A stretch of DNA of 64,000 nucleotides from an uncultured delta proteobacterium (GTDB taxonomy: Bacteria > Myxococcota_A > Polyangia > Fen-1088), in NCBI GenBank assembly GCA_963755125.1, contig CAVWIP010000011.1, positions 73,304 through 137,303 of the forward strand. Reading direction: 5' to 3'. The position numbers and the translations under genes were made by a program. The notes beneath the pieces are model-generated. The model was not told the origin of the DNA and searched no databases. It saw nothing but the letters and a program-made list of their open reading frames with translations. Below, in pieces: positions 3,328 to 13,462 of this stretch (position 1 is its first letter; every line of letters begins with the position of its first letter).

Positions 3328-5971
3328 AATCGCGCGCGTTTCTCTTTTCGGCAAGCTGAACAGCCTGGGCTACAAGGCCATCGAAAGCGCCACTGTCTTC
3401 TGCAAGCTGCGTGGCAACCCCTATGTCGAACTGGTCCACTGGCTCAATCAGATCCTGCAATTGCCGGACTCGGATCTGCACCACATCCTGCATGAGTTTC
3501 GCATCGATTCTTCGCGCCTGGCGCGCGACCTGACAGCGACCCTGGACCAGCTTCCGCGCGGGGCCACCTCGATCTCTGATCTGTCCTCCCATATCGAGGA
3601 GGCGGTCGAGCGCGGGTGGGTGTACGCGACCCTGCTTTTCGGCGAGTCGCAGGTGCGAACCGGGCACCTGGCAGTGGGAATCCTAAAGACTCCGAGTCTC
3701 AGAAATTCCCTTTCTGCCATTTCGCGCGAGTTCGACAAGGTGAAGGTCGAGCAGCTGACCGACCGATGGAGCGCCATCGTGAAGGGCTCGCCCGAGGAAG
3801 CCATGAGCGCAAGCGACGAGTTCCGGGTCTGCGCTTCGCCCGGGGAATCCATCGCGGCCATGGCCCCGGCTGCCCTGGGCAAACAAGAAGCGCTGCACAG
3901 ATTCTCGGTTGACCTGACCGAGCGCGCGCGAAATGGAGAGATAGATTCCATCGTGGGGCGTGACGAGGAAATCCGGCAGATCGTCGACATCCTCATGCGC
4001 CGGCGGCAGAACAACCCCATCCTCACCGGCGAAGCCGGGGTTGGCAAGACCGCGGTGGTCGAGGGGTTCGCCCAGCGCATTGCCAGCGGCGACGTGCCCT
4101 TGCCTCTGCGGGACGTGTCGCTGCGGGCGCTGGACATCGGACTGCTGCAAGCCGGCGCCAGCATGAAGGGCGAGTTCGAGAATCGCCTGCGCCAGCTCAT
4201 CGACGAGGTTCAGGCATCAGCGCAACCGATCATCCTGTTCATCGACGAGGCCCATACCTTGATCGGTGCCGGCGGCGCCGCGGGCACAGGCGACGCGGCC
4301 AACCTGCTTAAGCCGGCCCTGGCGCGCGGCCAACTGCGCACCATCGCGGCCACCACCTGGGCCGAGTACAAGAAGCACATCGAGAAGGATCCGGCGCTCA
4401 CCCGGCGGTTCCAGGTGGTGCAGGTGGGCGAGCCCGACGAGGCCAAAGCACTGCTCATGATGCGAGGGACGGCATCCGCGCTGGAGAAGCACCATCGAGT
4501 TCTCGTACTCGACGAGGCGCTCGAAACGGCGGTCAAGCTGTCCCGCCGGTACATTCCGGCCCGCCAGTTGCCCGACAAGGCGGTCAGCCTGCTCGACACC
4601 TGCTGTGCGCGAGTCGCCATCAGTCAGCACGCAGTGCCGGCCGAGGTCGAGGACAGCCGCCGCCGTATCCAGGGCCTGGAGACCGAGTTGGAGATCATTC
4701 TTCGAGAAGCGGCCTTGGGCATGACTGGCGACGCTGGTCACGAAAGGATCGTTCAAGACAAACTGGAAGCGGAAAGGCAACGGCTGGCCGGCCTGGAGCA
4801 GCGCTGGGCCGCGGAGAAGAAGCTGGTCGATCGCATTCTCGATCTGCGGAGCAAGCTGCGGGGAAGCCCTGAGTCGCCCGAGCGAAGCGCCTGGCTGGAC
4901 GAACTACACATGGCCCAGGCTGCGCTCGGCAAGCTGCAGGGCGAGCAACCCTTGATTCTGCCCACCGTGGATCAGCAGGTGGTGGCTTCCGTGGTGGGCG
5001 ATTGGACCGGCATCCCGGTGGGCCGCATGGTGAAGAACGAGATCGAGACCGTGCTGAGGCTGGCCGAGACCCTCGGCCAACGCGTGCTCGGCCAGGGCCA
5101 CGCCCTGGACATGATTGCCCGCCGGATCCAGACCTCGCGCGCCGGGATCGAAAACCCCAGCAAGCCCGTCGGTGTGTTCATGCTGGCCGGACCTTCCGGC
5201 GTCGGAAAAACCGAGACCGCGCTGGCCCTGGCTGAGACGTTGTATGGAGGCGAGCAGAACGCCATCACGATCAACATGAGCGAATTCCAGGAGGCGCACA
5301 GCGTGTCCACGCTCAAGGGCGCGCCCCCTGGCTACGTCGGCTACGGCGAGGGCGGCGTGCTGACCGAGGCGGTCCGGCGCCGCCCCTACAGCGTGGTGCT
5401 GCTCGACGAGGTGGAAAAAGCCCATCCCGACGTACACGAGATCTTCTTCCAGGTCTTTGACAAGGGCTGGATGGAAGACGGCGAAGGCCGGGGCATCGAT
5501 TTCAAGAACACCCTGATCTTCCTCACCACCAATGTGGGCAGCGAGCTGATCCTCGGCCTTTGCAAAGATCCCGACGCGCGGCCCGATCCCGAGCAGATCG
5601 CTCGGGCGTTGCGCAAGCCGCTGCTGCGAGCCTTCCCCGCGGCCCTTCTCGGCCGCATGGTCACCATCCCCTACTATCCGCTCAGCGACCAAATGATCGG
5701 CAACATCGCACGCTTGCAGCTCGACCGCGTGGCCAGGCGCGTACAGGAGAGCCACCGCATCCCGTTCAGCTACGACAACGCGGTCGTGAAGCTGATCGCC
5801 GACCGTTGCACCGAGTTGGAGAGCGGCGGTCGCATGATCGACTCGATCCTGACCAACACCCTGCTGCCCCGGATCAGCCAGGAGCTGCTCACCCGCATGA
5901 TGGAGGCCAGGCCCGTCACCAGAATCGCGACGACTGTGACCGGCGGCGAATTACAGTTCGCGTTTGATTGA
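3320..5971 (+). CDS. tssH: Type VI secretion AAA+ ATPase ClpV/TssH
   Basis: ClpV N-domain ([46 protein letters not shown]). Two AAA modules with Walker A motifs GEAGVGKTA and [17 protein letters not shown] lies before the ATG at 3320; the track start at 3314 is a TTG. Confidence 0.9.
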
Positions 5972-6053
5972 TTGCCAGCAAGAAGAACCGCGTGCTGCGG
6001 CTGGCCGAACTGGCGGCACCTCGACCAGTGCGTATTGGAGTAAACTGTCAGTC

Positions 6054-7448
6054 ATGGGCGAACAAGCGTCGTCAGAGAAGTCCCTTCCGCTCAAGTTGCG
6101 CACTCACGCTCCGATCCTTCTGGCAGCAACTCTGTTCGGCTGTGGTTCATCGGGTAGCAACTCGGTCGGCGCGCAGGATGCGAGCGCAGGTGGCACCGCT
6201 GGATCCAGCAGCGCGGCCGTGGCCGGCGCTGGTGGTGGCGGCGCAGCGGGAGCCAGCAGTGCGACCGTGGCCGGTTCCAGTGGCGGTGGTTCGACTGGCA
6301 CGTGCCTGGGCGCGCAGGTGCTGGCCGATCTGGGCAAGGCGCATGTGCTGGCCGGCGCTTCGATGGAGGACGCGACAGCGGCCACGGTGAAGGCCGACCT
6401 GCGCTACCAGTATCTTTCTGGTGGGATCTTCGACGGCACCTCGCCCTGCACCTCGTGCGCATCGGGCTGCACGACCAATGGAACTTCCTGCGCGAACACC
6501 GTGGGCTGCGCCTGGTGGGGTTGCTGGCAGTACGACCAGGATCCGCCCGGCGCCTATGTTCGCAACTTCGTGTCCACGGCCAAGGGCAACAGCCAGATCC
6601 CCATGTTCACCTACTACCAGATTCTGCAAGCCAGCGGCGCGACCGAGGACGCCGGCGAGGTTGCCGCGGCCAACAACGCCGCTTTCATGGCGCGGTATTT
6701 TGCCGACTTTCGTTTCGTCTTGCAGAACATCGGCAGCGACACCGCCCTGGTACACATCGAGCCCGATTTCTGGGGCTATGCCGAGCAGGTGAACAGCAAT
6801 CCGCACTCGATCCCGGCCGCGGTCGCCTCGGCCAACTCCACTGACTGCGCCGGCACCGAGAACAGCATCGCGGGCCTGGGCAATTGCGTAATCGCGATGG
6901 CGCGCAAGTACGCCCCCAAGGTGCGCATCGGCCTGCACGGCTCGGGCTGGGGCACCGACATCGACGTGCTGGCCAATACCAGCGCCTCGCTCAACGTACC
7001 CGCCGAGGCCAAGAAACTGGCGGATTTCCTGGTCGCCTGCGGAGCCGCCACCGGCGACTTCATCGTGGTCGACGCCAGCGATCGCGACGCCGGCTACTAT
7101 CAGAGCATCGGCCGCAACACCTGGTGGGACGCAACCAACGCCACCCTGCCCGACTTCACCCAGGCCTTCACCTGGGCCAAGGCCCTGGCCGAAGAGGCCG
7201 GCACCGGCGTGCTATGGTGGCAGCTTCCGGTGGGCAACATGAACCTGCCCAACCAGACCAACGCCTGGAAGGACAACCGCGTGGACTACTTTTTCGGCCA
7301 CACCGACGAGCTGGCGGCCAGTCACTCCGTCGGGATGGCGTTCGGCGCCGGCGATGCCAACCAGACCACGCCCGAGACCGACGGGGGCAACCTGGTGTCC
7401 AAGCTGAACGCCTACGCCGCCTCCGGCGGACAGGCCTACTGTCCCTAG
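6054..7448 (+). CDS. Secreted lipoprotein with Gly/Ala/Ser-rich linker, Cys-rich module and possible glycoside-hydrolase-like (TIM barrel) C-terminal region
   Basis: Lipobox LLAATLFGC|GSS after an in-frame ATG at 6054. Low-complexity GGTAGSSSAAVAGAGGGGAAG linker. Cys-rich motif CTSCASGCTTNGTSCANTVGCAWWGCW. The C-terminal region contains HIEPDFWGY and WWQLPVGN; the functional assignment is weak. Confidence 0.6.
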   Translation: MGEQASSEKSLPLKLRTHAPILLAATLFGCGSSGSNSVGAQDASAGGTAGSSSAAVAGAGGGGAAGASSATVAGSSGGGSTGTCLGAQVLADLGKAHVLAGASMEDATAATVKADLRYQYLSGGIFDGTSPCTSCASGCTTNGTSCANTVGCAWWGCWQYDQDPPGAYVRNFVSTAKGNSQIPMFTYYQILQASGATEDAGEVAAANNAAFMARYFADFRFVLQNIGSDTALVHIEPDFWGYAEQVNSNPHSIPAAVASANSTDCAGTENSIAGLGNCVIAMARKYAPKVRIGLHGSGWGTDIDVLANTSASLNVPAEAKKLADFLVACGAATGDFIVVDASDRDAGYYQSIGRNTWWDATNATLPDFTQAFTWAKALAEEAGTGVLWWQLPVGNMNLPNQTNAWKDNRVDYFFGHTDELAASHSVGMAFGAGDANQTTPETDGGNLVSKLNAYAASGGQAYCP

Positions 7449-7451
7449 CGC

Positions 7452-7497
7452 CGCCGGTCAAAAATTGTCGAGGGGAGAGGCGATCGAGGCGCCCGGC
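7452..7497 (+). repeat. Conserved ~40-bp 3'-flank motif, copy 1 (CCGGTCAAAAATTGTCGAGGGGAGAGGCGATCGAGGCGCC)
   Basis: Starts 4 nt after the stop of the 6054-7448 gene. About 33/40 identical to copy 2 at 9362-9405. Confidence 0.6.
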
Positions 7498-7688
7498 CGC
7501 TGCGCGGCCGCTGCCTGATCTGCAGCAACATCCTCGCGAAGAACAAAGACAGAATTTGCCGCCATTCGGACGACAGATGGGTCGTTCTCGTGACAATCCC
7601 GCGACGGGAACGTCAACCTTGCCGAAGCCTTTTTATTGGTCTTCTTTTGGTTTGACTGGCCACAGAAAGAAAGACTAGAAGGCCAGCC

Positions 7689-9272
7689 ATGCACACTTCC
7701 ATCCGCACGCACGTTGGTTCGAAAAACTCTGGCTGTCTCTTCGGTCTGGCCTTGCTCGGCATGCTCGGCGCCTGCACGGGGCGGAGCCCGGGCAAGAGCG
7801 TGGAAACTTCGCAGGAAGCGCTCACCGGCTCGTTCGCGATCTCGGGCGCGGTGACATCGTCGAAGGGTCCTGTCGTGGGTGCGACGGTGAAATTGGCAGG
7901 GTCGGAATCCCGGACTGCTTTCTCCGATGCGACCGGGCACTACTCGATTCCCGGGCTCGGCGTCGGCAGCTATCAGCTCTCGGCGTCCGCCAGTTCCACC
8001 TGCACGAGCTCGACGGTGCCACTCAACAACATGAACGCCAGCGTGACGGTCGACCTCGGATTGACCGGGACCGGCTGCGCATCGTTCGTCGGGGTGCTCG
8101 GGCCGACCGGTCCGGCGGGTCCGGCTGGTGCGCAGGGAAAGACTGGCGCGACTGGCGCGCAGGGGCCTGCGGGTGCGATCGGGCCCGCGGGTGCGGTCGG
8201 ACCTGCAGGTGCGATGGGACCTGCGGGTCCGCAAGGCGTTCCGGGCGTCCCGGGTCCACAAGGAGCCCCTGGGACTCCGGGGGCAGCCGGGCCTCAGGGC
8301 GCAGCAGGTCCGGCAGGTCCGGCAGGTCCAGCGGGCGCAGCCGGCCCGCAGGGCGCGACAGGTCCGCAGGGTCCGACCGGCCCCTCGGGAACTGCGACAC
8401 CACCACTCGTGGTCATTGGCTCAATGAGCTTCGGTACCTTGGTGACCAGCGCGCCAATCCGCACGTTCAGCCAGCGGGTGGACGTTCCGTGGGGTCTTTC
8501 CGGGCCAACAGGACAGGCGCAGCTTTCCGCGATCCAGATCAGCCGCGACACCGACGTCTCGAGTCCGAACCTCGCCCTCATCGCAGCGAACCAACAGGCG
8601 ACTTCCACGGCGCAAATCGTACTTGCCGGGGGCGCCCTTACCATCGGGTTGACCAACGTCATTCTCACTCAGTTCAGCACCGATTCGACCCAGGATGGCG
8701 CGCCCATCGAGCAGCTCACGCTGATCTTTACCAAGGAAACCTGGAGCTACGGCTCGTCGACGGTCACCTACGACCCCTCCTCGGAAAACGGCGGCAGCGG
8801 CGGCGGCCCCGTGGGCCCCAAGTTCGTGTTTTTCGGTCAAGGCGTCGACCCAAGCAGCTTCTCAAGTGAAACCCCCTTCTCCAAGCTCGTCATGTCGCTG
8901 ACCAGCCCGACCGGCACCGGCCCGGGTTCTGGCTTGGCCGGCAACACGGTATTTTCCCCACTGACGCTGGTAACCGGCGTTTCTGTGCAGACGCTTAGCG
9001 AGTTGGGCGCCGCCTTACGCCAGACCACCACTCAAGCTGTGACTGCTCATTTCACGGCGCTCGACAACAACAACGCGATCGTCGATCGCATGCGGTACGA
9101 CATGCAGAACGTTCAGGTGAGCACGGTGGCGATCGACACCGCCCCGGACGGAACGCTCCAGGACACCGTGGGATTCCAGCCTGCCAAGATCACGTGGACC
9201 GCGCAGTCACTCACCGGCGGTCCGAATGTGACGACTACGTGGAACATCGCCGGCGGGGGCCCAAGTCACTAG
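7689..9272 (+). CDS. Lipoprotein: carboxypeptidase-regulatory-like beta-sandwich + collagen-like triple-helix repeat (32 G-X-Y) + two tandem Hcp(TssD)-like domains
   Basis: Signal/lipobox LLGMLGAC|[36 protein letters not shown] resembles a CarbopepD_reg domain. Uninterrupted [10 protein letters not shown]...GPTGPSG run (aa 138-234). C-terminal segments align to Hcp motifs: [19 protein letters not shown]..., [13 protein letters not shown], then a second copy ([10 protein letters not shown] ... [11 protein letters not shown]). Confidence 0.75.
8100..8390 (+). repeat. Coding collagen-like G-X-Y triplet repeat (32 consecutive triplets)
   Basis: Gly at every third residue for 97 aa, with Pro/Ala/Gln-rich X and Y positions. 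Confidence 0.9.
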
Positions 9273-9361
9273 ACTTGATGGCACCGCGATCATCACGCTC
9301 ACATCGGCTGGGGTGGTCCCCACCAATGACGGCGCCGAGTGTGGCACGCCCGCCGCGCGCT

Positions 9362-9405
9362 AGGGCCTCCGGTCAGAAGTTGTGGAGGGGAGGGGCGGCC
9401 GAGCC
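9362..9405 (+). repeat. Conserved ~40-bp 3'-flank motif, copy 2 (CCGGTCAGAAGTTGTGGAGGGGAGGGGCGGCCGAGCCGAA)
   Basis: Lies about 90 nt after the stop of the collagen/Hcp-like gene. Shares the CCGGTCA-AA-TTGT-GAGGGGAG-GGCG-CGAG core with copy 1. Confidence 0.6.
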
Positions 9406-9553
9406 GAAGTGCAAGCTGGCGGCATCCTGGGTCGAGTAGCCGATAGCCGCTCTGCCCCCTGGCTTCCTGCCTGCGTTTTGCCCCGAGATCCGCTACTATC
9501 TGCCCGCGCGCCCCACCGGGGCTGCGATGAACCACCAGCGAGAGGCAGACACC

Positions 9554-10819
9554 ATGGCGACCAAGACCCTTGCAGATATCAACGTCAGCGGCAAGACCGT
9601 GCTCATGCGCGTGGATTTCAACGTGCCCCTGAAGGGCGGCCAGATCACCGACGACCGGCGCATCCGCGCCGCGCTTCCCAGCATCAAGCAGGTGCTGGAC
9701 CAGGGCGGCAAGTTGGTACTGATGAGCCACCTGGGCCGGCCCGACGGCGCCTTCGATCCAGAGGGCAGCCTCAAGCCCTGCGCCGCGCGCCTGGGCGACC
9801 TGCTGGGCAAGCCGGTGAAGCTCGGGCCCAAAGAGGTCATCGGTCCGGCCGCCGAGGCTCTGGTGGCTTCGCTCAAGCCGGGCGATGTGGCCCTGCTGGA
9901 GAATGTGCGCTTCAACGCGGGCGAAACCATGCCCGACAAGGCTAAGAAGAATCCCGACAAGAAGCTGACGGCAGAGCAGCAGAAGACCCACGACGATTTC
10001 GTCGCCGGACTGGCCAAGCTGGGCGACGTGTACGTCAACGACGCCTTTGGCACCTGTCACCGCAAGCACGCCAGCATGTACGGCACGGCCAAAGCCATCC
10101 AGAAGAAGGGCGGCACCGCGGTGGCCGGGTATCTGGTGGAGAAGGAGATTCGCTACCTGCACGAGGCGGTGTCCAGCCCCAAGCGGCCCTTCGTGGCCAT
10201 CCTGGGAGGGGCCAAGGTCAGCGACAAGATCAAGCTCATCTCCAACCTGCTCGGCAAGGTGGACCACATCCTCATCGGCGGGGCCATGGCATACACACTG
10301 CTGAAGGCACGCGGCGTGGCCGTGGGCAAGAGCCGGGTCGAGGAAGATCAGGTCGAGGAGATGAAAAAGCTTCTCGGACAGGCGGGCGGCAAGATCGTGC
10401 TGCCCTGCGATCACAGCGCGGCGGCCAACTTCGACTTCAAGGCCATGACCGGCGACAAGCCCACGGTAGTACCCGGCGCCGCGATTCCCGACGGGCTGAT
10501 GGGAATGGACATCGGACCCAAGACCGTGGCTGCCTTCGGCGACATCATCGGCAAGGCCGGCACCATCGTGTGGAACGGCCCCATGGGCGTGTTCGAGGCC
10601 CCGGACTACGCGGCCGGCACCCTGGCTGTGGCCAAGGCGATCGCGGCGGCCACTGGCCGTGGCGCCATCACGGTCATCGGCGGCGGCGACTCGGCCGCAG
10701 CGGTCGAGAAGATGGGCCTGGCTGACAAGATGACCCACGTCTCCACCGGCGGCGGCGCCAGCCTGGAGTACCTGGAAGGCAAGACCATGCCGCCGATTGA
10801 AGTGCTCGACCAGAAGTAG
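9554..10819 (+). CDS. pgk: Phosphoglycerate kinase
   Basis: [26 protein letters not shown]...MSHLGRPDG and a C-terminal [13 protein letters not shown] motif are classical PGK. The first in-frame start is at 9527. Confidence 0.92.
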
Positions 10820-12880: not shown

Positions 12881-13462
12881 CTATCGCGTCGCTGTCAGCG
12901 CTGCCTCGGACGCGGCGTTCGCCTTCTCCTCACGCACGCGCAGCAAAGCGAACTCGGGCCGCACCGCCACCGCCAAGGACAAGAACCGATCTCCTTCGCG
13001 AAACATCAGTTTCGCATCAACCATCTCGCCAAGCTGGTCCGCGACCTCTTGCTGTGACAGCGCGCCGGCGAAACGTCTGGCAATCTCCTGCTCGGAACGG
13101 ATATTGGTGCAGAAGAGGTAGAGATCACGCCAGCTCCTGTCCAGGGTGAAGACCTGGAAGTCCTTGCGCCGATCGACGATCTCGAGAAATTCGCCACCGT
13201 CGTAGTAGACCATGGCTTTACTCTCGACTGCCAGCAAACTTGACCGTTTGAGAAATTCCGCGCGTCTCCGCCAGCGCTTGACCGCTGCCAGAACCGGATC
13301 CCAGGAAACCGGGTCGGCGACCAGATCGTGGTCGCGGTAGGGCAAATCGAGGCGAGAGCCGACGTCGTCTGGAAGCGCAGCGAGGTAGCCCGCGTGCGAC
13401 CCGCGGTTCGTGGTTTTGAACGTACGCCGACAGCGCGCCCAGAGCAGCCGAGGGAGCATCAA
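12881..13462 (-). CDS. Hypothetical protein with C-terminal PqqD-like (RRE-type winged-helix) domain
   Basis: Segment MVYYDGGEFLEIVDRRKDFQVFTLDRSWRDLYLFCTNIRSEQEIARRFAGALSQQEVADQLGEMVDAKLM fits the PqqD pattern. GC3 of the N-terminal extension (~75%) supports the full frame as coding. An alternative start at 13213 gives a 110-aa PqqD-only protein. Confidence 0.45.
   Translation of the reverse strand: MMLPRLLWARCRRTFKTTNRGSHAGYLAALPDDVGSRLDLPYRDHDLVADPVSWDPVLAAVKRWRRRAEFLKRSSLLAVESKAMVYYDGGEFLEIVDRRKDFQVFTLDRSWRDLYLFCTNIRSEQEIARRFAGALSQQEVADQLGEMVDAKLMFREGDRFLSLAVAVRPEFALLRVREEKANAASEAALTATR

Follow-up and report, generated by a model that had tools for sequence, protein, structure and literature searches.

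Canonical Hcp/TssD is the tube subunit of the T6SS. It is a single domain of ~160 aa that forms homohexamers, carries no Sec signal, assembles in the cytoplasm inside the sheath, and keeps a genomic link to the T6SS core genes. The family is represented by Pfam PF05638 and includes P. aeruginosa Hcp1 (1y12) and M. xanthus Hcp (5urw). In evolved Hcp effectors, a toxin is fused to the C-terminus of Hcp (PMC8262886). The phage T5 protein pb6 carries tandem tube domains, and its trimer forms a pseudo-hexameric ring by way of duplication and fusion (PMC5717097); P74-26 gp93 and the gp27, Mu gp44, and VgrG hubs also carry two tube-fold domains in one chain.

Bacterial collagen-like surface proteins include BclA (Bacillus), Scl1 and Scl2 (Streptococcus), Lcl (Legionella), Bucl (Burkholderia), and Pcl (Pasteuria). 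They combine an export signal and an uninterrupted G-X-Y stalk with a globular, often variable head. C1q and the C1q-TNF proteins carry a C-terminal globular head on a collagen stalk, and this head could nucleate the trimer. The MAT fibres on the surface of the predator Bdellovibrio start with a signal peptide and an N-terminal domain that is beta-rich and invariant; a trimeric stalk follows and ends in tips that can be swapped (PMC10769870).

The protein described here joins a collagen stalk to two Hcp-fold domains behind a lipoprotein signal. Its gene is an ORF at 7689..9272 on the + strand of a 64,000-nt stretch of DNA (the window) from an uncultured soil myxobacterium. The ORF starts with ATG, has GAAGG 6 nt upstream of the start, and encodes 527 aa. 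Its GC3 outside the collagen run (0.77-0.81) matches that of the neighbouring genes and is 0.59 within the run. The encoded protein is divided as follows:

7689..7775, + strand: lipoprotein signal peptide (aa 1-29) with a basic n-region (R6, K12), a hydrophobic core, and the lipobox L-G-A-C
7776..7826, + strand: short linker (aa 30-46), moderately conserved (mean pairwise identity 57%)
7827..8090, + strand: CarboxypepD_reg-type beta-sandwich (aa 47-134), Pfam PF13620, E 3.6e-11, 43.7 bits against a cutoff of 32.3
8091..8396, + strand: collagen-like stalk (aa 135-236) of 34 uninterrupted G-X-Y triplets, Pfam Collagen E 1.2e-14
8397..8813, + strand: Hcp-fold domain D1 (aa 237-375)
8814..9269, + strand: Hcp-fold domain D2 (aa 376-527), the second T6SS_HCP stretch, phmmer match to Hcp3 (9qpe) at E 0.008

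A preliminary description of this DNA had read from the translation an N-terminal lipoprotein signal with a carboxypeptidase-regulatory-like beta-sandwich, a run of 32 triplets at aa 138-234, and two successive Hcp/TssD-like segments. All three readings hold, the collagen run counted here being essentially the same one. That description also knew of no described family with this architecture, and our literature search on collagen-Hcp fusions, tandem Hcp, Hcp with a signal peptide, and myxobacterial collagen-like lipoproteins likewise found no account of one.

The lipobox LGAC, with its cysteine at residue 29, agrees with the bacterial lipoprotein pattern of a [LVI][ASTVI][GAS]C-type box near residues 15-35. 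Cys29 is the predicted first residue of the mature protein and is putatively lipidated. It is invariant across 15 homologs, and G27 and A28 are kept in at least 90% of them. Of 44 family members, 37 satisfy a PROSITE-type lipobox rule; among the seven exceptions, at least four have a mis-called start, and their box can still be seen. The residue at +2 is T, S, Q, A, G, or E in the family and never D or K. No other module of the family is as conserved as the beta-sandwich that follows (mean pairwise identity 82% among 12 homologs). Its two cysteines, C105 and C130, are invariant among homologs, which is consistent with an extracytoplasmic protein.

The stalk is the sole G-X-Y run of its kind in all six frames of the window. 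Proline occupies the X position in 17 of the 34 triplets, and the stalk contains a single charged residue. Because of this one charge, and because there is no known means of hydroxylation, its thermal stability is an assumption. We infer that three chains trimerise here into a collagen triple helix; if triple-helical, the stalk would be ~29 nm long. All 12 tandem-Hcp homologs keep 30-35 uninterrupted triplets per stalk, corresponding to ~26-30 nm. With its signal peptide and folded domains on either side of the 34 triplets, the protein has the general make-up of bacterial collagen-like proteins. The NCBIfam models for SclB, Lcl, and SclA match its collagen part only and score far below the family cutoffs (68.5 bits against 325, 58.7 against 500, and 48.5 against 400). 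It differs from the described collagen-like surface proteins in its phylum (Myxococcota), in its head, which has the Hcp fold instead of a C1q-like or V domain, and in its anchor, a lipobox where the others use LPXTG or an exosporium signal; its sequence contains no LPXTG.

The head matches PF05638 in two stretches with 47.5 bits against a gathering cutoff of 23.5. Single-sequence phmmer searches of the PDB match its first half to Hcp1 PA0085 (1y12, E 0.043), reproducing the alignment of the preliminary description, and its second half to Hcp3 (9qpe, E 0.008). By hhalign, D1 and D2 match one another with a probability of 97% (E 2e-11, 18% identity), and D2 matches canonical Hcp at E 2e-4. D2 is an anciently duplicated copy of D1. 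For aa 235-527, the AF2 model reaches a pLDDT of 92.9 and a pTM of 0.88, which together with the profile matches bears out the tube-protein fold of these residues. Both domains of the modelled tandem head superpose at once on the trimeric gp27, Mu gp44, and VgrG hubs over 165-184 residues, and D1 and D2 give the chain the two tube-fold domains typical of pb6, gp93, and gp27/VgrG. The NCBIfam TssD model scores 14.9 bits against a cutoff of 58.9.

The base and stalk are shared by a family of proteins from Myxococcota MAGs that have the lipobox, the beta-sandwich (~82% identical), and the collagen stalk in common and carry interchangeable heads. The base bears an RTAFSD motif across members with differing heads. 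Some members have a single-Hcp head (P0036/44/45/48), one has a phage Collar-domain head (P0088), four have small heads without a Pfam match (P0041/43/47/57), and the head of P0097 consists of repeated VAHCxDxACS units. Mean identity is 82% in the base and ~45% in the Hcp heads, and some pairs combine a near-identical base with a very different head, as in L016 and L018 (96% vs 43%). The single-Hcp siblings would have three domains per trimer, so the stalk family need not always form a ring of six domains. Every homolog is of metagenome or MAG origin. Apparently stand-alone tandem-Hcp proteins of 264-335 aa (P0121-P0130, P0021, P0034) were considered as a cytoplasmic ancestor and rejected: their starts fall at an internal Met (MSLG) or within the collagen run. 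The true ORF of L018 is a complete 529-aa protein with lipoprotein signal, stalk, and head, and gene calls of 534 aa and 286 aa fall in one cluster, which also speaks against a separate stand-alone class.

Upstream of the gene and on the same strand lie the T6SS genes TssE (3-383), TssF, TssG, and ClpV. One unknown gene of 494 aa and a gap of 240 bp separate ClpV from it. A promoter and terminator scan of 7300-9700 found no sigma-70-like site or + strand terminator between the unknown gene and this gene, nor any downstream of it, and no sigma-54 -24/-12 match was seen by eye in the 240-bp gap. The window holds no paralog of the protein, no second G-X-Y run, and no other Hcp gene. The near-identical locus L009 contains a canonical 159-aa Hcp inside the same T6SS cluster.

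Of 13 distinct homologous loci, two have T6SS genes near the gene, and these two belong to close relatives. At ten of the 13 (L001/2/14, L004-6, L007/8, L010, L011, L012, L015, L016, L017, L018) they are absent within the available flanks, and the same is true of the place of P0026. At L013 a 53%-identical homolog lies on the opposite strand, convergent to the orthologous T6SS cluster and ~5.7 kb from ClpV; TPR, RCC1-repeat, and other genes fill the interval. No conserved neighbour gene pointing to a specific function was present in the flanks of the homologous loci. The T6SS neighbourhood of the gene is incidental, and the adjacency to T6SS core genes that headed the preliminary description carries no functional weight. 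Its separate argument against a T6SS tube subunit is strengthened by the canonical Hcp in the L009 cluster, the conserved lipobox, and the signals of the single-domain relatives described below.

An exhaustive profile search places the protein in a wider, undescribed group of Hcp-like proteins. Among its 150 best matches, 62 have one Hcp-like domain per chain, 53 have two, and 25 have six, whereas chains with three, four, five, or seven domains total 10. A Sec-type signal is present in 39 of the 51 complete single-domain relatives, and the nearest relatives, most of them with a signal, are encoded outside T6SS loci. The group as a whole appears to be independent of the T6SS. Six-domain relatives contain six T6SS_HCP domains by Pfam together with the extracellular markers Planc_extracel, dockerin, and Big_13. 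The predicted fold of one such single chain has a pTM of 0.78, and its adjacent domains, taken two at a time, superpose on T5 pb6 and P74-26 gp93. The clustering of domain counts at one, two, and six is compatible with a six-domain ring as the working unit. The preliminary description had proposed that a collagen-enforced trimer would place six Hcp-like domains around one axis; this idea gains indirect support from the clustering, from the superposition of the modelled head on trimeric hubs, and from the six-domain chain.

The protein is probably a Sec-exported, lipid-anchored homotrimeric fibre of ~29 nm, tethered to the outer membrane, whose pseudo-hexameric Hcp-like ring would serve in binding or recognition; it would be no part of the T6SS beside it. 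Lipidated Cys29 would provide the tether to the outer membrane, and the conserved beta-sandwich would sit next to it. Three chains would wind their 34 G-X-Y triplets each into the collagen triple helix. At its distal end, two Hcp-fold domains from each of the three chains would pack as six into a pseudo-hexameric ring, as in T5 pb6 and the gp27/VgrG hubs. The head would then be the part that varies and does the work, binding or recognising a target at a distance from the cell, with base and stalk as a constant chassis. Computation supports the domain architecture, the Hcp fold, the conserved lipobox, the modular family, the absence of a conserved T6SS link, and the clustered domain counts, from which trimerisation, closure of the ring, a place at the outer membrane and cell surface, and the binding role go on to be inferred.

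A role in the adjacent T6SS, as a modified tube or cap subunit or as an evolved Hcp that carries cargo, would explain the position of the gene on the same strand, downstream of TssE-TssF-TssG-ClpV, the homolog near the orthologous cluster in L013, and the PF05638 match above threshold; JGI names homologs 'T6SS component Hcp'. The fold and the PF05638 match are indeed those of Hcp/TssD. However, the conserved lipobox and signal peptide with the invariant Cys29 cannot be reconciled with assembly in the cytoplasm within the sheath, the cluster already has its own 159-aa Hcp, and in place of the single domain there are two, behind ~236 aa of signal, beta-sandwich, and collagen. There is also no adjacency in 11 of 13 distinct loci, the L013 gene being convergent and several genes away, and the nearest relatives are mostly signal-bearing proteins outside T6SS loci. 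The protein resembles evolved Hcps in fusing an Hcp domain to another module; its extension is N-terminal, structural, and behind a signal peptide, unlike their C-terminal toxin (PMC8262886). Neither Pfam nor NCBIfam finds a toxin domain, and the Hcp domains are C-terminal, contrary to the Hcp-ET layout. The T6SS reading is largely refuted by these data and is very unlikely. A domesticated tail-fibre or tube protein of a phage or tailocin is likewise very unlikely. In favour of it, phage tail fibres often contain collagen-like segments, the protein matches PHROG tail-fibre families and 432 stretches of viral contigs, one sibling bears a phage Collar domain as its head, and phage tails have the tube fold as well. 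Phage origin was rejected, as the viral-contig and PHROG matches centre on the collagen segment and never cover the whole head.

Two further readings accept export and differ in where the ring would act. Lipoproteins of diderms face the periplasm by default, as Gram-negative outer-membrane lipoproteins often do, and the protein could accordingly be an inward-facing strut or ruler, with a rigid collagen rod of fixed length that crosses the periplasm and holds the ring close to the inner membrane or cell wall. The tightly kept stalk length of 30-35 triplets, on the order of the width of the periplasm at ~26-30 nm, fits this reading. The heads, however, are the fastest-evolving and swapped part of the protein, which is typical of exposed recognition domains and not of internal struts; a sibling carries the phage tail Collar domain, and multi-Hcp relatives carry dockerin and Planc_extracel markers. 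A ring of Hcp size (~8-9 nm) would also need to lie beyond the peptidoglycan mesh, and we regard the strut as unlikely. Alternatively, exported Hcp-like rings could stack into extracellular tubes or cross-link cells, with the stalk as a mere tether. The Hcp fold is made for ring-on-ring stacking (PMC5717097), there is a large set of signal-bearing Hcp-like proteins with one, two, or six domains, and a trimeric stalk with single-Hcp heads could complete a six-domain ring only with a second trimer, so that two fibres would be cross-linked. Divergence of the heads (45% identity) favours specificity over a generic building block, though kin-specific docking would fit it, and matrix or exopolysaccharide genes are not conserved near the homologous loci. 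Such a matrix element is also unlikely.

Compared with T6SS Hcp/TssD, the surface fibre that we favour adds a lipoprotein signal, a second domain, a beta-sandwich, and a collagen stalk, and lacks conserved T6SS linkage. The term 'C1q-like' used in the preliminary description is apt for the overall shape as an analogy and fails for the head, which is an Hcp beta-barrel and not the jelly-roll of C1q. The layout parallels that of the Bdellovibrio MAT fibres, a likeness of architecture (PMC10769870). MATs have a beta-helical or beta-prism stalk in place of collagen, no lipobox is reported for MATs, and the described MAT tips lack an Hcp fold (PMC10769870). By the MAT-fibre parallel, these collagen-stalked lipoproteins with swappable heads from uncultured peat and permafrost Myxococcota are candidates for adhesion and for prey or kin recognition. 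Predatory species occur among the myxobacteria, as in Bdellovibrio.

A broader idea, tentative and on balance unlikely, is that exported Hcp-like rings form a T6SS-independent surface or extracellular module assembled from six single-domain chains, three two-domain chains, or one six-domain chain. Where a myxobacterial collagen stalk carries it, the ring might dock with its free face onto a matching ring of another cell, or capture a ligand in its lumen, and fast-diverging, swappable heads would then give strain-specific cell-cell or prey recognition. If true, there would be three routes to a ring of six tube domains (6x1, 3x2 with trimerisation by collagen, and 1x6), and the ring would add a further independent case of the duplication and fusion route seen in T5 pb6 and gp27/VgrG. 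For protein engineering, a ring head with a defined geometry, trimerised by collagen, could be a useful scaffold.

The Hcp fold is in this group decoupled from the T6SS: a sizeable set of proteins listed in databases as 'T6SS Hcp' are signal-bearing, often multi-domain, and unlinked to T6SS genes. Since exported Hcp-like proteins match PF05638, T6SS surveys that count PF05638 matches are contaminated by them. One T6SS survey dropped PEP-CTERM Hcp genes without comment (PMC8262886).

The target gene encodes a protein in which Pfam finds three families over their gathering scores, with the following features.

7689-9272, + strand: target gene, ATG start, 527 aa
aa 51-122: CarboxypepD_reg beta-sandwich base (Pfam, 43.7 bits)
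aa 135-236 (nt 8091-8396): uninterrupted G-X-Y run of 34 triplets (Pfam Collagen, E 1.2e-14)
aa 237-375 and aa 376-527: head domains D1 and D2 (Pfam T6SS_HCP in two stretches, 47.5 bits against a gathering score of 23.5)

The N-terminus consists of a basic n-region, a hydrophobic core, and a lipobox, L-G-A-C, whose Cys29 is invariant in 15 homologs. The lipoprotein signal and the carboxypeptidase-regulatory-like domain of the preliminary description are both upheld. A PROSITE-type lipobox rule is satisfied by 37 of 44 family members; in at least four of the other seven the start is mis-called and the box can still be seen. After the lipobox Cys, position +2 is occupied by T, S, Q, A, G, or E, with no D or K in any member; inner-membrane retention is signaled by Asp in E. 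coli and by Lys in Myxococcus. The beta-sandwich cysteines C105 and C130 are also invariant, and a putative disulfide between them would suit an extracytoplasmic protein.

The collagen run, initially placed at aa 138-234 with 32 triplets, is thus slightly longer, and there is no second such run in any frame across the 64-kb window. GC3 is 0.77-0.81 outside the run, matching neighboring genes, and the codon statistics of the target are native. Within the collagen-coding segment (8100-8390), GC3 drops to 0.59 versus ~0.8 in the gene remainder and neighbors, and GC at the first two codon positions climbs to ~0.9.

The last 290 aa form two domains of the Hcp fold. In single-sequence phmmer searches against the PDB, the first half of the head matches P. 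aeruginosa Hcp1 (1y12) and the second matches Hcp3 (9qpe), and AF2 modeling from a 34-sequence alignment gives pLDDT 92.9 and pTM 0.88. As read from the sequences, the head goes back to an old duplication of a domain of the Hcp lineage, since D1 and D2 are homologous (hhalign 97%, E 2e-11, 18% identity) and the genome's own canonical Hcp aligns weakly to each half. The original observation of two Hcp-like segments behind a collagen stalk is therefore real, and most of its structural reading holds. The architecture is new and combines two known kinds, bacterial collagen-like fibers and Hcp/tube-fold rings.

Base and stalk are more conserved than the head.

Mean pairwise identity by region among 12 full-length homologs
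Beta-sandwich base: 82%
Collagen: 68%
Hcp D1: 45%
Hcp D2: 44.5%

All of these homologs have an unbroken stalk of 30-35 triplets. Identity in the base does not track identity in the head: the homologs at loci L016 and L018 share 96% identity in their bases against 43% in their heads, and heads are at most 51% identical in 11 of 14 pairs whose bases are at least 90% identical. Other heads occur on proteins that share the lipobox, the 'RTAFSD...YSIPGLG' beta-sandwich, and the collagen with the target.

Alternative heads, by database protein
P0036/44/45/48: single, very canonical Hcp (E down to 1e-22)
P0088: phage tail Collar domain
P0041/43/47/57: small heads of ~110-135 aa without a Pfam match
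P0097: repeat-rich head of ~370 aa, with roughly seven repeats containing 'VAHCxDxACS'; Pfam matches the stalk part only

The mosaic adhesive trimer (MAT) fibers of Bdellovibrio have a parallel layout: they start with a signal peptide, their invariant beta-rich N-terminal domain lies close to the cell surface, and a trimeric stalk carries exchangeable tips (PMC10769870). The genes for P0044 and P0045 each run divergently from an Omp85-like gene (~403 aa, weak Pfam match) that could be related to export or surface display; these neighbors (L021 349-1560, - strand, and the P0044 locus) lie in syntenic loci and count as one observation.

All eight genome matches are Myxococcota MAGs (fen 'Myxococcales', Polyangiaceae, and permafrost and soil bins). 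Collagen and T6SS_HCP occur together in ~45 clusters at 90% identity, and the sources of these proteins leave them unnamed or give them JGI's automatic label 'type VI protein secretion system component Hcp'. Truncated gene calls, starting at an internal Met or within the collagen run, are common among the database entries. The truncation is systematic: JGI calls in the clusters of P0007 and P0017 are ~286 aa out of genes of 529-534 aa and begin at an internal Met past the collagen run, while the real ORF at L018 (3173-4762) is full-length at 529 aa. Stand-alone tandem Hcps, which such calls mimic, were rejected as a cytoplasmic ancestor.

The target lies downstream of T6SS genes on the same strand, in the order ClpV, a 494-aa ORF, a 240-bp gap, and the target, followed by a phosphoglycerate kinase gene.

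3-383, + strand: TssE, with TssF, TssG, and ClpV also upstream of the target
5964-7448, + strand: 494-aa ORF, start overlapping the clpV stop by 8 nt

The product of the 494-aa ORF begins like a lipoprotein (…LLAATLFGCGSS) and continues with a Gly/Ala/Ser-rich linker and a Trp-rich C-terminal domain, with no match among Pfam, NCBIfam, PDB sequences, or PHROGs. It is kept in locus L009, with fragments only in L013, and may be a candidate T6SS accessory protein or effector. An ORF at 12881-13462 (- strand, 192 aa) gives a weak partial match to the C-terminal end of a RiPP-maturation radical-SAM C-methyltransferase model (E 1.3e-8, 34 bits versus a cutoff of 282) and no Pfam hit.

L009 (99% identical) reaches further upstream, to TssB-TssC-Hcp(159 aa)-TssE. 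The T6SS cluster therefore owns a canonical tube protein, in agreement with the earlier view that the target is not the tube subunit. Homologs at 43-61% identity have unrelated neighborhoods (MerR-TPR; UvrC with metallo-beta-lactamase; RsbR/STAS with histidine kinase; ECF sigma; GH3), and tblastn with six T6SS proteins as queries found no T6SS genes in L010-L012 or L014-L017. Among the loci so searched (L010-L017), L013 alone lies near a T6SS cluster, and the 90% identity between its ClpV and that of the window marks it as the locus of a close relative. The L013 homolog (53% identical) is convergent to that cluster and parted from ClpV by TPR, RCC1-repeat, and other genes. T6SS genes are thus nearby in 2 of 13 distinct loci, both of one lineage. 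The T6SS neighborhood, which had been offered as evidence, is incidental, and the adjacency is dropped; that the target is a T6SS component is very improbable.

The target would be exported by Sec, lipidated at Cys29, and sorted to the outer membrane, next to which its conserved beta-sandwich would lie. Collagen segment and C-terminal head would together trimerize into a rod of ~29 nm (102 residues at 0.286 nm each), with a predicted pseudo-hexameric Hcp-like ring at its tip. The combination of a conserved base with a head that diverges fast and is swappable suggests a chassis that displays a binding or recognition module. Such a lipidated trimeric fiber, with a membrane base, a ring tip, and a displayed recognition module, is the reading we hold to be probable. 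The conserved stalk length would also suit a periplasmic strut, which we consider unlikely, and a role as a ring-stacking matrix or adhesion element is likewise unlikely. A phage-derived protein is extremely improbable: its viral and PHROG matches are centered on the collagen run, and none covers the whole head.

The target leads to a wider set of signal-bearing Hcp-like proteins, so far undescribed. A head-only profile searched with HMMER against 1.84 billion representative proteins gave 3,138 matches at E <=1e-3, and Hcp-like domains were counted in the best 150.

Hcp-like domains per chain in the best 150 of 3,138 matches
1 domain: 62 proteins
2 domains: 53 proteins
3 domains: 2 proteins
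4 domains: 3 proteins
5 domains: 4 proteins
6 domains: 25 proteins
7 domains: 1 protein

A six-domain ring as the working unit would predict counts of one, two, and six with almost nothing between, which these fit; at least two of the inspected three- and four-domain chains (P0219, P0236) are visibly truncated. The AF2 model of the six-domain chain P0169 (1,048 aa) implies a fixed global arrangement, because its pTM is 0.78 even with disordered termini. N-terminal fusions to Hcp1 in the PDB still form hexamers (4ksr, 6ap1, 7o42), so a stalk in that position need not prevent a ring from forming. As a caveat, the single-Hcp heads that this stalk also carries would supply three domains per putative trimer.

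Proteins P0156-P0259 include single chains with exactly six T6SS_HCP domains (~1,050-3,650 aa), which appear undescribed; Pfam confirms the six domains in chains of ~1,050-2,200 aa. Many have dockerin or Big_13 domains or, at the N-terminus, the 'LE.R.LL' motif of Planctomycetes (Planc_extracel). One six-domain gene adjoins a gene of SBP_bac_10, a family typical of Planctomycetota, in a neighborhood without T6SS genes. No description of exported Hcp-fold proteins was found in the literature, and one Hcp survey took out Hcp genes with PEP-CTERM signals prior to analysis (PMC8262886). Among complete single-domain relatives, 39 of 51 have a classic Sec signal peptide directly before the canonical Hcp start, and only 11 of 51 start like a cytoplasmic Hcp. 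P0232-P0295 include many such Sec-signal proteins of ~170-230 aa, which automatic annotation would call T6SS Hcp. A further class of ~335 aa combines a signal peptide and a short helical segment with the same tandem head as the target.
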